A stretch of 6,533 nucleotides of DNA. Source: a virus (lineage: Duplodnaviria; Heunggongvirae; Uroviricota; Caudoviricetes). Shown in pieces: positions 3,430-6,533 of this stretch. Both the position numbers and the translations under genes were made by a program. How positions within the stretch are numbered: the stretch's first letter is position 1; each line of letters begins with the position of its first letter. The notes under the pieces are model-generated. The model did not search any database. It worked only from the letters and a program-made list of their open reading frames with translations, and was not told where the DNA came from. Location: IMG/VR virus record IMGVR_UViG_2693429508_000008; one strand, written 5' to 3'.

Positions 3430-4229
3430 ATGGCACATATACAACTGGTCAAACAAACCTCTTCCGGATTACTTCTCCCGGCGACGCCGGAGAGTTGCGA
3501 TTTTCTGCATCAAATCAAAATAGGTGAGTGGATACACGCAGACTTTAAGCGTGTGTGTAACTACGCATTCCACAAGCGTTTTTTCAAACTCCTGCAACTG
3601 GGTTTCGATTACTGGACTCCGGTCGGTGGGGCGATCACGCCTCGCGAACGAAAACTGGTGTCCGGTTTCGTTGATTACCTGTGTGAATCAGTAGGCCGGG
3701 AACATACGCCAGCTCTGAGCGAAGCCGCAGAGCAATATCTGAATACAGTTGCGACACGCAGAACCAGTGATACGGCATTGCTAAAGTCGTTTGAGGCTTT
3801 CCGCGAGTGGGTAGCCATTCAGGCCGGATTTTACACCGAGCATTTTTATCCGGACGGTAGCCGTGGGTGTCGGGCGAAATCTATCGCGTTTGCGAATATG
3901 GACGAAACCGAGTTTCAGCAGGTTNCGCAGAGCAATATCTGAATACAGTTGCGACACGCAGAACCCGGGATACGGCATTGCTAAAGTCGTTTGAGGCTTT
4001 TCGCGAGTGGGTAACCATTCAGGCTGGATTTTACACCGAACATTTTTATCCGGACGGTAGCCGCGGGCGTCGGGCAAAATCCATCGCTTTTGCGAATATG
4101 GACGAAACCGAGTTTCAGCAGGTTTATAAATCTGTTCTGAATGTGCTGTGGAACTGGATTCTGTTCCGTAAATTTTCCTCTCCGGAACAAGTCGAAAATG
4201 TGGCCGCGCAGCTGCTGGAGTTTGCGTAA
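3430..4229 (+). pseudogene. Conserved lambdoid nin-region protein (DUF1367-like by recollection) with its frame broken by a ~200-bp tandem duplication containing an N
   Basis: Probable start ATG 3430 (GGAGA 6 nt upstream); the ORF-track start at 3388 is a TTG. The reading frame runs to 3942, then the same protein segment (AEQYLNTVATRR...DETEFQQV) recurs in a +2-shifted frame that continues to TAA 4227-4229. Removing one repeat copy would restore a single ORF of about 200 aa. Confidence 0.6.
3726..4124 (+). repeat. Imperfect direct tandem duplication, 2 x 199 bp (3726-3924 and 3926-4124), joined by ambiguous base N at 3925
   Basis: Copies aligned by eye: 11 mismatches in 199 bp (about 94% identity). 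Period is exactly 200 bp. Confidence 0.85.
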
Positions 4230-4519
4230 TGGTGGATTTACGTAAAGCGGCGCGGGGGCAGATGTGCACCGTCAGAATTCCTGGCTACTGCAATCACGAT
4301 CCGGAAACGTCTGTGCTGGCGCATTACCGACTGGCGGGAACGTGCGGAACAGCGATAAAGCCACACGATATGCAGGCAGCGATTGCCTGTAGCTCGTGCC
4401 ACGATTTAATCGACGGGCGGGTAAAAACCAGCGATTACACCAAAGAAGAATTACGCCTGATGCATGCAGAAGGTGTTTTTCGCACACAAGAAATCTGGAG
4501 AAAGGAGGGATATTTATGA
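4229..4519 (+). CDS. ybcO: YbcO-like protein (DUF1364; putative Zn-binding nuclease of lambdoid nin regions)
   Basis: 96-aa ORF. Start ATG 4229 overlaps the upstream stop (TAATG); GGAG 8 nt upstream. Translation MVDLRKAARG...CTVRIPGYCN...ETSVLAH...IACSSCHD matches my recollection of E. coli DLP12 YbcO in length and Cys/His pattern. Confidence 0.75.
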   Translation: MVDLRKAARGQMCTVRIPGYCNHDPETSVLAHYRLAGTCGTAIKPHDMQAAIACSSCHDLIDGRVKTSDYTKEELRLMHAEGVFRTQEIWRKEGYL

Positions 4520-5070
4520 TTTACCCAACGAATACAGGAAAAAGCGGAGAACACCTTCGTCTCACCACGCTGGAAAGTGTCTGGATTCAGGGAAAACTAC
4601 GTATGTGGGGGCGCTGGTCGTATATTGGTGGCGGTAAGACGGGGAATATGTTTAACCTGATGTTGACCTCTAAAAAGCTGACAAAAACGGCAATTAACGA
4701 GGCGCTCCGGAGGATGAAAAAAGCAGGTCTGAACAAGTCTGAACTTGAGGCTTTTTTGCGGGATATGATTAACGGTAAGCAAAAGAGCTGGCTGGCGCAT
4801 TGTACTGATGCAGAGGCGTTATGTATTGATCGGGTCATAAGTGAGGTGCTGGCAGAGCATCCAGGATTGATTAGCGTCCTTCGGCAACGGTATGAGGGGC
4901 GGGGGATGACCAAACGCAAAATGGCTGAACTGCTGAATGATGCACACCCGAAATGGAGTTTAAGAACCTGTGAAAGACGCATTGAGCATTGGCTAAAGGT
5001 GGCAGAATTTATTTTGTACAAACCAATGGTTATGGCTTTTGGTATAGAGAAAAAAGTTATTGCTTTTTGA
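4516..5070 (+). CDS. Putative late-gene antitermination protein Q (Q-like, non-lambda type); assignment by synteny and weak motif resemblance
   Basis: 184-aa ORF. Start ATG 4516 overlaps the ybcO-like stop (ATGA) with AAGGAGGG 6 nt upstream; the longer ORF from 4396 is rejected. Position (last gene before a terminator and tRNA cluster) and an N-terminal RMWGRW motif resemble the E. coli prophage Q family. Not verified. Confidence 0.5.
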   Translation: MIYPTNTGKSGEHLRLTTLESVWIQGKLRMWGRWSYIGGGKTGNMFNLMLTSKKLTKTAINEALRRMKKAGLNKSELEAFLRDMINGKQKSWLAHCTDAEALCIDRVISEVLAEHPGLISVLRQRYEGRGMTKRKMAELLNDAHPKWSLRTCERRIEHWLKVAEFILYKPMVMAFGIEKKVIAF

Positions 5071-5151
5071 CGTAAAAACTGCTTCAATTCTTGTACGCTT
5101 CGCAAAGCTGTACCGCGAGGCGAATAGCAGACATGGACATTTGAAAGAGCC

Positions 5152-5175
5152 CGCTTTATGCGGGTTTTTTTATAC
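5152..5175 (+). terminator. Rho-independent terminator downstream of the Q-like gene (candidate tR'-like site)
   Basis: Stem AGCCCGC (5152-5158)/GCGGGTT (5164-5170) with a 5-nt loop, followed by a run of 7 T. Confidence 0.65.
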
Positions 5176-5221
5176 CTGAAAAACGGCACAGGACGTTAAA
5201 CGTGCTGGTGGTCAGATGAGT

Positions 5222-5250
5222 TTGCAGATGTGATGACATATGGTTATTAT
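5222..5250 (+). promoter_or_regulatory. Weak candidate promoter for the tRNA cluster (-35 TTGCAG 5222-5227, -10 TATTAT 5245-5250, 17-bp spacer)
   Basis: Hexamers read from sequence; the -10 ends 10 nt before tRNA position 1. The -35 is a poor match. Confidence 0.3.
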
Positions 5251-5259
5251 TCTGCCTCC

Positions 5260-5336
5260 GGCCCTTTAGCTCAGTTGGTCAGAGCGAGCGACTCATAATC
5301 GCCAGGTCGCTGGTTCAAGTCCAGCAAGGGCCACCA
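5260..5336 (+). tRNA. tRNA with CAU anticodon (Met or lysidine-type Ile2; likely Ile by analogy with lambdoid-phage ileZ)
   Basis: Cloverleaf folded by hand: acceptor GGCCCTT/AAGGGCC, D arm GCTC...GAGC, anticodon loop CTCATAA, T arm GCTGG-TTCAAGT-CCAGC, encoded CCA at 5334-5336. Resembles E. coli ileX. Confidence 0.85.
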
Positions 5337-5337
5337 A

Positions 5338-5411
5338 CCACCACTAGCTCATCCGGATAGAGCATCAACCTTCTAAGTTGACGGTGCGAGGTTCGAGTCC
5401 TCGGTGGTGGG
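5338..5411 (+). tRNA. tRNA-Arg (anticodon UCU, reads AGA)
   Basis: Acceptor CCACCAC/GTGGTGG, anticodon stem TCAAC/GTTGA with loop CTTCTAA, T arm CGAGG-TTCGAGT-CCTCG, discriminator G5411. The 3' CCA is not encoded (CCT follows). Starts 1 nt after the preceding tRNA. Confidence 0.8.
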
Positions 5412-5416
5412 CCTGC

Positions 5417-5492
<76 letters not shown>

Positions 5493-5495
5493 TAT

Positions 5496-5570
<75 letters not shown>

Positions 5571-6183
5571 GCGAGATTTGAGACGAAGGTTGTTATTTGC
5601 ACTGACACAATATTGTGTGGGAATGTCTGACTCCTTACCATCTCCTGTTCTGTGATGTTGTTTTGTTGCAGTTCCAGTGCTCTTTTTTCAGCACCAGAAT
5701 GGTGCATTGTCGGTCAGGTTACGTAGTGAACCTCTGGCAGGGGACTGATGATTCATCATTCTGGTGTTGTAAATATCTCTTCGGACAACTTACAAAATAT
5801 TCTAAGCAAACCCCGGGAACACACTCTTAACTGCCTTGGCTGGCGGTTTTTTGTACAGTGCTCGGTATGTGTGAGCTGGAAATCAGATTTTGCATGGACT
5901 GGAATCATGCTGTTATTTAGGGGCGAAGAACTGGCTTTTTCTTCCGCCTTCTCACCAGTAACGATTAGAAAAATAATGAAATGCCCCCCTCCGGGGAGGA
6001 GGACCGTAGAAAAAAGGACCCGCCAGCAAAAACATTGGGGATGAACAGCTTTCGCTACTCAGATTGCTGGCGGGTAAAGTTCCTCATGAATTAAGAATGC
6101 TACGCGATCTTTTTTAATGGAAATGAAAATTATTGTCAATTAGTCGTGCGTGTTTTTTCATACAATATTGGTAAAGGTGATTC

Positions 6184-6219
6184 AGGCCATCAGAGTTTTG
6201 CTGATGGCCTTTTTTCTTT
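6184..6219 (+). terminator. Strong rho-independent terminator
   Basis: Perfect 10-bp stem AGGCCATCAG (6184-6193)/CTGATGGCCT (6201-6210) with loop AGTTTTG, followed by TTTTTTCTTT. Confidence 0.75.
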
Positions 6220-6244
6220 CCGATAGCACAGGTCTGTCGGGGGG

Positions 6245-6522
6245 NNNNNNNNNNNNNNNNNNNNNNNNNNNNNNNNNNNNNNNNNNNNNNNNNNNNNNNN
6301 NNNNNNNNNNNNNNNNNNNNNNNNNNNNNNNNNNNNNNNNNNNNNNNNNNNNNNNNNNNNNNNNNNNNNNNNNNNNNNNNNNNNNNNNNNNNNNNNNNNN
6401 NNNNNNNNNNNNNNNNNNNNNNNNNNNNNNNNNNNNNNNNNNNNNNNNNNNNNNNNNNNNNNNNNNNNNNNNNNNNNNNNNNNNNNNNNNNNNNNNNNNN
6501 NNNNNNNNNNNNNNNNNNNNNN
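6245..6522. other. Assembly/scaffold gap (278 N)
   Basis: Continuous run of n characters; only 11 defined bases follow (6523-6533). Confidence 0.99.
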
Positions 6523-6533
6523 GGCTTCTGACT

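Follow-up and report, generated by a model that had tools for sequence, protein, structure and literature searches.

Positions 5571–6244 of a 6,533-nucleotide viral DNA record (IMG/VR IMGVR_UViG_2693429508_000008; the whole record is called the window here, and all positions refer to it) form a stretch of 674 bases that runs from the first base after a tRNA-Gly gene to an assembly gap. The window is the regulatory/late-gene junction of a lambdoid prophage. Our comparisons indicate that the stretch is a mosaic of two independently moving modules, and not the single unit of about 670 bp that was described in an initial annotation of this DNA. Segment A (5571–5855, plus strand) is best described as the 3ʹ trailer, or external transcribed spacer, of the upstream tRNA operon, and it appears to encode a conserved, structured RNA. 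Segment B (5870–6244, assigned to neither strand) is a noncoding module that travels with a class II holin gene, the start of which lies in the gap. The two modules are joined just after an intrinsic terminator, T1, and a second terminator, T2, precedes the holin gene. We favor, as moderately probable, a combined account in which the stretch is both the trailer of the tRNA operon and an insulator between that operon and the lysis genes.

A noncoding stretch with improbable inverted repeats

Open reading frames (ORFs) of 71 and 98 amino acids are present at 5615–5830 and 5748–6044, respectively. The initial annotation dismissed both as chance frames, and we agree: none of the six candidate ORFs of the stretch has a match in Pfam or PHROGs, and these two frames are lost in diverged relatives. 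Among the diverged homologues of segment A there is no common ORF of at least 30 amino acids, and several homologues have no such ORF at all. Since there is neither a protein-family match nor a conserved ORF, 5571–6244 is a genuine noncoding stretch, as had been proposed. It contains no toxin gene, in line with the earlier statement that no stx-like coding sequence is present.

Direct reading and a repeat scan place a perfect 14-bp palindrome, ACACAATATTGTGT, at 5605–5618 and a 10-bp inverted repeat, CACCAGAATG/CATTCTGGTG, at 5692–5701 and 5757–5766, exactly where they had been annotated. The repeat scan also finds the annotated 12-bp inverted repeat, ACCCGCCAGCAA/TTGCTGGCGGGT; its first arm is at 6018–6029 as described, and its second arm is at 6064–6075, one base from the earlier placement (6065–6076). 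These repeats are rarer than expected by chance. When the 674 bases were shuffled 500 times with dinucleotides preserved, 0.6% of the shuffles contained a perfect inverted repeat of at least 12 bp within 60 nt, 3.2% contained one of at least 10 bp within 60 nt, and 3.6% contained a 7+7 palindrome. Terminator-like sites are also in excess, with five observed in the scan and 1.4 ± 1.4 expected.

The assembly gap and the holin gene

The 674 bp occur at ≥99.3% identity in nine complete Escherichia coli genomes. We examined one of these, NZ_CP065615, across the position of the gap. After the equivalent of 6244 comes GCGGGAT and then the ATG of a 216-nt class II holin gene, which starts 8 bp past the last readable base. 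The encoded protein matches PF04971 (P21 holin S; 1.5e-35), and the gene is followed by a YdfR-like gene, lysozyme, Rz and terminase. The 11 bases beyond the gap (6523–6533) fall inside the holin gene. Because 6523 maps 150 bp after 6244, about 149 bp are missing in the gap, and not the 278 N of the record. On the plus strand of the window we therefore distinguish a holin leader (6220–6244), the gap (6245–6522) and holin-internal bases (6523–6533). This mapping indicates that a class II holin gene of the P21 type starts within the gap, that 5571–6244 is the leader of the lysis cassette, and that the gap hides no cargo gene. Two earlier suggestions, that the stretch occupies the cargo/lysis slot of a lambdoid phage and that it forms the leader of a gene lying within the gap, are borne out by this layout, in which the stretch lies between the Q/tRNA region and the lysis genes. 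The match between NZ_CP065615 and the window is confined to 5259–6244; the Q region differs, which is the usual lambdoid mosaicism.

Segments A and B have different distributions

Segment A is near-identical in only nine complete E. coli genomes. A further 224 genomes, all with chromosomal copies, carry relatives at 68–78% identity, giving a total of 233 of 5426 complete E. coli genomes (a few percent). In the E. coli and Shigella prophages that we examined, segment A lies directly after tRNA-Gly and ahead of three different lysis cassettes. When species-representative genomes were searched with a degenerate pattern for its hairpin, matches were found only in E. coli and Shigella flexneri.

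Segment B is much more widely spread, in ~1500 E. coli records at roughly 84–88% identity, which include chromosomes and ~560 mostly conjugative IncF-type plasmids. Where we examined intact prophages, a cassette of holin, YdfR and lysozyme follows it directly. It also occurs in remnants that lack the holin gene, one of them carried by plasmid pECOS88 and the other situated next to pap genes in a chromosomal island with flanking insertion sequence elements. The remnant loci are L008 (pECOS88; 3501–3844) and L131 (4001–4344). On pECOS88, the one plasmid examined, segment B is ~390 bp from iss. We aligned five sequence classes of segment B, three from intact prophages and two from holin-less remnants. 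Homology to the holin-linked module starts at ~5860–5870, just past T1.

The sequenced-phage collection yielded no high-identity match for either segment, and two weak matches to segment A, in an LT-IIb prophage and in vB_EcoS-683R6. In four IMG/VR contigs (L035, L037, L054 and L074) the region is present from 5705 on, with unrelated sequence to the left; the breakpoint sits in the 5ʹ arm of the long hairpin described below, and L037 has a second partial copy.

A predicted plus-strand fold in segment A

A homologue set for segment A was obtained by scanning viral contigs with a 20-mer from its long hairpin. This gave 99 loci and 50 distinct trailers, in seven clusters, that are 56–62% identical to the window; all of them begin at the base after tRNA-Gly. 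The fold was derived with RNAalifold from the 50-sequence alignment, and one hairpin, HP1, was added by hand. On the plus strand, RNAalifold and pair counts delimit a branched 5ʹ domain (5598–5681), closed by an invariant helix, P1 (5598–5604 with 5675–5681; GCACUG/CAGUGC). Inside this domain are HP1 (5605–5609 with 5614–5618), which is the 14-bp palindrome, and two short helices (5621–5624 with 5647–5650, and 5654–5656 with 5671–5673). The domain is followed by a conserved T run (5683–5688; a U run in RNA) and by a long imperfect hairpin of ~23 pairs (5689–5769), the core of which is the 10-bp inverted repeat. Its pairing comprises 5689–5693 with 5765–5769, 5695–5704 with 5754–5763, 5706–5713 with 5745–5752, and an apical 3 bp (5732–5734 with 5740–5742). 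With runs of 5, 10 and 8 pairs separated by single mismatches, the hairpin has a size and shape that would fit an RNase III substrate (about two turns, ≥20 bp). Past the long hairpin, the sequence of segment A differs between classes. Its features, in outline, are a run rich in U, a hairpin, a single strand rich in A/U and a U-tailed terminator.

The substitution pattern across the 50 trailers is that expected of a folded RNA. HP1 reads ACACA/UGUGU in the class of the window and GCGUA/UACGU in the commonest class, with a loop of 4–9 nt; two of its pairs are changed on both sides, in 10 sequences each, and G·T occurs in 34 sequences. The initial annotation had made conservation of the palindromes in related phages a test of its reading. 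As DNA, the 14-bp palindrome is not conserved; what is kept among relatives is the pairing of the RNA (ACACA/TGTGT against GCGTA/TACGT). In the long hairpin, 99.1% of alignment cells are paired, 12 pairs are invariant, and 10 vary on one side only, through G·U, A·U and G·C exchanges. For the fold as a whole, 97.7% of 2427 cells are standard pairs, compared with 37–54% when partners are slid by 1–3 columns, a control that is inflated because the structure was derived from the same alignment, whose sequences are moreover related by descent. Six pairs change on both sides.

Two comparisons distinguish the strands. There are 544 G·U cells and 11 A·C cells, and only 75.7% of the same pairs would stay intact on the other strand; for the consensus fold, the energy is −36.9 kcal/mol with the plus strand and −7.8 kcal/mol with the minus strand. 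The excess of G·U and the difference in energy therefore argue that these are helices of an RNA transcribed from the plus strand, in the direction of the tRNAs, and not DNA operators. We conclude that, as judged from the alignment, segment A encodes a conserved plus-strand folded RNA.

Terminators T1 and T2

T1 (5829–5855, plus strand), identified by the terminator scan, consists of a 7-bp stem followed by TTTTTTGT. In a diverged class (~56% identical overall, 70% in the BLAST match), the same position holds a stronger terminator, CCGCC..GGGCGG followed by T8. Segment A extends from the last tRNA to T1, in an operon with its own promoter. That is the placement of a 3ʹ external transcribed spacer, in what we predict to be a single transcription unit.

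T2 (6184–6219, plus strand) has a 10-bp stem, AGGCCATCAG/CTGATGGCCT, in which six of the ten pairs are G-C, followed by T6CTTT. The stem occupies 6184–6210, and the bases after it are TTTTTTCTTTC, with the tract itself given as TTTTTTCTTT. The end of T2 is ~33 nt upstream of the start codon of the holin gene. T2 does not vary among the three classes from intact prophages and is weakened in both remnants that lack the holin gene, and its stem recurs in phage PhiR5_2 with a different loop, again just ahead of the holin gene. Because it is conserved with the holin gene, is weakened where the holin gene has been lost and is present in PhiR5_2, T2 belongs to the holin unit. The strong terminator that the initial annotation placed at 6184–6219 is thus confirmed, with its 10-bp stem and T run, and its conservation together with the holin gene can be added. 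The G+C-rich stem-loop and following T run that define an intrinsic terminator are present in T1 and T2 on the plus strand, and in H2 and H3 (see below) on the minus strand.

The tRNA operon and its promoter

ARAGORN and Rfam (tRNA, 56–70 bits) identify four plus-strand tRNA genes at 5260–5570, with CAT (Met or Ile2), Arg-TCT, Thr-TGT and Gly-TCC anticodons. A predicted σ70 promoter for the operon (5222–5250, plus strand) reads TTGCAG, 17 nt, TATTAT, and ends 9 nt before tRNA-Met; the promoter scan reported it one base shifted, as TTTGCA-18-TATTAT (5221–5250). We aligned 43 distinct upstream sequences and read out the four-tRNA clusters among them (including loci L133, L191, L194 and L197). 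In each, a −35-like hexamer (TTGCAG, TTGCAA, TTGCTG or TTGATT) is followed by a spacer of 16–17 nt and a −10 hexamer (TATTAT, TATCAT or TACTAT), and the first tRNA begins 9 nt further on. The clusters have this geometry in common and unrelated sequences in the spacer. Because the cluster has its own conserved promoter, the prophage tRNAs are probably made in the lysogen, with transcription probably running into 5571–6244.

A candidate antisense RNA on the minus strand of segment B

Two terminator-like hairpins are present on the minus strand of segment B. H3 (6005–6085) has a perfect 12-bp stem (6075–6064 with 6029–6018), which is the 12-bp inverted repeat, followed by CC and T6 (6015–6010); on the plus strand, no T run follows the stem. 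The H3 block is the most conserved part of segment B, and the stem is invariant in four of the five classes. An outer helix around the stem is formed by G-C, A-U or G·U pairs on the minus strand in all five classes and on the plus strand in two. One change in the class of plasmid pS88 disrupts H3 on the minus strand but leaves its plus-strand pairing in place. H2 (5967–6004), found by the terminator scan, has a stem at 6004–5983 followed by ATTTCATTATTTTT. It is less conserved than H3, and its better-folding strand differs between classes. The fold of the minus strand of 5965–6244 has a z-score of −3.8.

Upstream of H3 on the minus strand is a putative promoter (6111–6139), with TTGACA (6139–6134), 17 nt and TAAAAA (6116–6111). 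All intact classes have the same −35, −10 and spacing of 17 nt, with variation at five spacer positions and in the bases downstream. The final T that is usual in a −10 is missing, and the consensus scan did not report the site. We regard an antisense RNA of ~100 nt, starting near 6104 and ending at H3 near 6010, as a candidate.

We also considered a small RNA on the plus strand that ends at T2, and rejected it: the sole good −10 (TACAAT, 6161–6166) has no −35 at 16–18 nt and is lost in other classes, which have TACATG.

Comparison with known RNAs

An Rfam covariance search, a check that the initial annotation had put forward, matched no known family in 5571–6244 at E values up to 10, including AgvB (RF02702), AsxR (RF02703), STnc100 (RF02076), Esr41 (RF02676) and isrK (RF01394). 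The best matches are generic hairpin or terminator look-alikes at 10–22 bits, against cut-offs of 37–245. The same search finds STnc100 at 114.5 bits in a related prophage, which indicates that the method works. STnc100 occurs where segment A would be in the commoner prophages that have segment B (in locus L002, at 3698–3886, ~115 nt upstream of segment B).

Several described small RNAs occupy comparable positions. Tree et al. 2014 (PMC4104026) described small-RNA genes that converge within the cargo slot, which lies downstream of the lambdoid late promoter. In enteropathogenic E. coli (EPEC), PasA is antisense to, and just upstream of, a holin gene, and a longer form of 236 nt, listed in table S6 of the same study, extends to a second terminator (Pearl Mizrahi et al. 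2021, PMC8550237). Zhu et al. 2026 (10.64898/2026.05.13.724894) found that pasA, pasC and pasD1 typically adjoin a conserved holin/lysozyme operon. PasA/PasC (EcOnc51/52), PasD/STnc100 (EcOnc13) and the anti-sRNAs AsxR/AgvB share with our stretch the slot near the holin gene and the terminators converging from both strands. PasA resembles the minus strand of segment B in its orientation antisense to the holin gene and in a second terminator that ends a longer form. The stretch directly precedes the holin gene and has terminators with T runs on both strands, and it thereby resembles Pas RNAs, which are intergenic, adjoin the holin/lysozyme operon and have a 3ʹ stem-loop with a poly-U tail; this is resemblance, not membership. 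By sequence similarity in blastn, the criterion that Zhu et al. used for Pas small RNAs, there is no relationship: blastn-short with PasA, PasB, PasC and PasD1/2 of E2348/69 (table S6 coordinates) gives 8–14-nt chance matches (E ≥ 0.1). The attachment of segment A to a tRNA cluster is a further difference, and one that we have not seen described for Pas, EcOnc or AsxR/AgvB RNAs.

Two kinds of RNA associated with tRNA clusters resemble segment A in position. The E. coli small RNA 3ʹETS-leuZ is reportedly released by RNase E from the 3ʹ external transcribed spacer of glyW-cysT-leuZ, as a stable, Hfq-bound sponge for other small RNAs (described by Lalaouna and colleagues in 2015). Like segment A, it is noncoding, lies directly 3ʹ of the last tRNA of its operon, is co-transcribed with the tRNAs (as we predict for segment A) and ends at an intrinsic terminator. 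Segment A is much longer (~285 nt) and has a branched domain and a ~23-pair hairpin, and we claim no similarity of sequence. Phage T4 encodes species 1 and species 2 RNAs (rnaC and rnaD), stable RNAs of unknown function inside its tRNA cluster. They and segment A are structured RNAs other than tRNAs that are encoded within a phage tRNA cluster or beside one and are transcribed together with it, in T4 as a matter of record and in segment A by prediction. T4 is a virulent phage, whereas the window is from a lambdoid prophage. [quoted passage not shown]

Other candidates were set aside. IpeX of DLP12 was considered for the region ahead of the holin gene, but in K-12 nmpC is on the other strand, and the region upstream of essD has no similarity to the window. 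The region upstream of essQ in the Qin prophage, which contains the small protein gene ynfU, has none either. svsR is in a different place, at the 3ʹ end of a phage cI repressor gene, as is HnrS, which follows the Rz lysis gene in prophage Sp9. A full-text literature search with six fragments of each segment returned nothing but one chance primer match, in a paper on an O protein/replication origin. Within Rfam and the searchable literature, the folded RNA of segment A has not been described previously, and the RNA elements of both segments are unannotated in the records that we examined.

The prophage around the stretch

The window begins with a gene for a DnaC/IstB-like ATPase (40–786), followed in gene order by genes for a DUF977 protein and a zinc-ribbon protein, and then by a full-length gene for the epoxyqueuosine reductase QueH (1785–2471; PF02677, 2e-65). 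QueH is a tRNA-modification enzyme, and the same prophage also holds the four-tRNA cluster. A complete hok/sok-type toxin-antitoxin locus (2529–2854) comprises sok (2529–2704; Rfam, 117 bits) and a Hok/Gef family peptide (2699–2854; PF01848, 4e-23). Between this locus and YbcO (4229–4519) is a gene for a DUF1367 protein with an internal duplication, a direct repeat of 199 bp at 94% identity (3726–3924 and 3926–4124) with a single N at 3925 between the copies. The repeat resembles an assembly artifact, either a join between two prophage copies that are nearly identical or a repeat that was collapsed, more than a biological feature.

A Q-type antiterminator is encoded at 4516–5070 (DUF1133, 2e-107; Phage_antitermQ, 8e-07), and a terminator that is conserved among relatives lies between it and the tRNA genes, at ~5145–5172. 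The stem of this terminator varies among relatives with compensating changes. The interval from Q to the tRNAs (5086–5173) has sub-threshold matches to Trp_leader (23 bits) and isrK (19.9 bits, E 0.11). It probably corresponds to a short transcript from the late promoter, like λ 6S RNA or StxS. With Q upstream and the lysis genes downstream on one strand, the window has the organization of a Q-dependent late unit.

Discussion

Downstream of Q, lambdoid phages have the late promoter pRʹ, the terminator tRʹ, a cargo (“moron”) slot and then S, R and Rz. Phages that encode Shiga toxin (Stx phages) carry tRNAs and stx in this slot, and, from what is established for λ and Stx phages, Q is expected to override any terminators that the late transcript meets. 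The window has the same order, with a Q-type antiterminator, a terminator (~5145–5172), tRNAs, a noncoding stretch and a class II holin gene. It differs in that the slot holds no toxin or other cargo gene; in their place are a tRNA operon with its own conserved promoter, a conserved structured trailer and, only ~33 nt ahead of the start of the holin gene, a terminator.

We propose that these features together supply the lysogen with tRNAs and keep the lysis genes silent. In the lysogen, RNA polymerase starting at the tRNA promoter (5222–5250) would make the tRNAs and the folded trailer, and would stop at T1. T2 would catch any read-through of T1 before the holin gene, such that the holin is not expressed. 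After induction, segment A would also be transcribed from the Q-dependent late promoter, and Q-modified polymerase would pass the terminator that follows Q, as well as T1 and T2, allowing expression of lysis functions. As to the role of the folded RNA, our best guess is that the trailer serves in the processing or the stability of the tRNA precursor, perhaps as a substrate of RNase III or RNase E. We favor such a role because the long hairpin is of a size that would suit RNase III.

Several observations weigh against this account. The use of the promoters, the efficiency of termination and read-through by Q-modified polymerase are all read from DNA sequence. In the commonest segment A class there is only a weak T tail at the position of T1, and hence not every class has a terminator there. 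In the long hairpin, most pairs show no variation and so are neutral on the fold. Insulation also leaves two features unexplained, namely the conservation of the ~200-nt trailer (56–62% identity, with the fold maintained) and the terminators on the minus strand of segment B.

What else could the stretch encode? It is possible, if on balance doubtful, that one or two discrete, trans-acting small RNAs arise from it, an explanation that is compatible with insulation. A plus-strand RNA ending at T1 would be released from the tRNA trailer in the manner of 3ʹETS-leuZ, and the ~100-nt antisense RNA would be made from the minus strand of segment B; each would pair with host or phage RNAs. The precedent of convergent small-RNA genes in this slot (PMC4104026), the presence of PasA and PasC near the holin gene in the equivalent slot of EPEC, and the replacement of segment A by STnc100 in the commoner segment B prophages are all consistent with such RNAs. 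So are the U-rich run, hairpin, A/U-rich single strand and U-tailed terminator of segment A and, on the minus strand of segment B, the two terminators, the TTGACA-17-TAAAAA site, the fold score, the near-invariant H3 and its outer helix, which pairs on that strand in every class. However, neither Rfam nor BLAST comparison with PasA, PasB, PasC and PasD links the stretch to a known small RNA, and apart from one chance primer match neither segment's sequence appears in the searchable literature. The minus-strand −10 has no final T and escaped the scan, the change in the pS88 class favors H3 on the plus strand, and the divergence of segment A beyond the long hairpin leaves no conserved seed there. 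A stronger proposal combines the two RNAs: segment A would be a new phage RNA family of ~200–285 nt, carried at the 3ʹ end of prophage tRNA operons of E. coli and Shigella, made constitutively in lysogens from the tRNA promoter, released and trans-acting, with segment B as its convergent antisense partner. We consider this proposal unlikely.

The initial annotation raised the possibility that the repeats are operator sites for control of late genes. The perfect 14-bp palindrome and the 10-bp and 12-bp inverted repeats are each individually unlikely by chance, which counts in favor of binding sites for a phage late-gene regulator. Nonetheless, the sequence of the palindrome is replaced in homologues while its stem is kept by compensatory changes around a loop of variable length, and as DNA the helices are rich in G·U positions, that is, in mismatches. 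Moreover, the arms are 55 bp apart in the 10-bp repeat and 34 bp apart in the 12-bp repeat, and the latter is followed by a T run on one strand, like a terminator. Operators are thus hardly credible here, and the palindrome and the 10-bp repeat are better read as helices of plus-strand RNA. We regard decayed coding sequence, whether a pseudogenized cargo gene or a real gene for a small protein, as highly improbable. The two ORFs discussed above could be taken to suggest it, as could a 63-amino-acid “hypothetical protein” that RefSeq places in part of segment B in some genomes and a mini-ORF of 12–17 codons that starts at 6041 in all five segment B classes. However, as described above, the ORFs lack Pfam and PHROGs matches and are not kept in diverged homologues, and the frame of the 63-amino-acid protein is broken in the window by a one-base indel. 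In the mini-ORF, every difference in the first 12 shared codons changes the amino acid, and the putative ribosome-binding site abuts the start codon.

What is the significance of the stretch under the account that we favor, in which a tRNA trailer is combined with insulation of the lysis genes? For annotation the matter is settled: the sequence between the prophage tRNA cluster and the holin gene is a noncoding leader with terminators, and for the most part an ordinary one. What is new is the conserved structured RNA on prophage tRNA operons and the candidate antisense RNA. Because the tRNA cluster has its own promoter, the trailer RNA is expected in lysogens. The nearest complete genome that we found is that of CFSAN029787, which we take to be an enteroinvasive strain, and the element is also present in S. 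flexneri. Strain FDAARGOS_943, like CFSAN029787, has the exact sequence. AsxR, AgvB and the less characterized Pas RNAs, which occupy this slot, have host RNAs as interaction partners or change the regulation of virulence in pathogenic E. coli. If the stronger small-RNA proposal were true, the RNA of segment A would be released by tRNA-processing enzymes and could, for instance, sponge up small RNAs of the host or serve as decoy to an RNA-binding protein. For the prophage itself, a terminator so close to the holin start would keep lysis silent beside a constitutive promoter.

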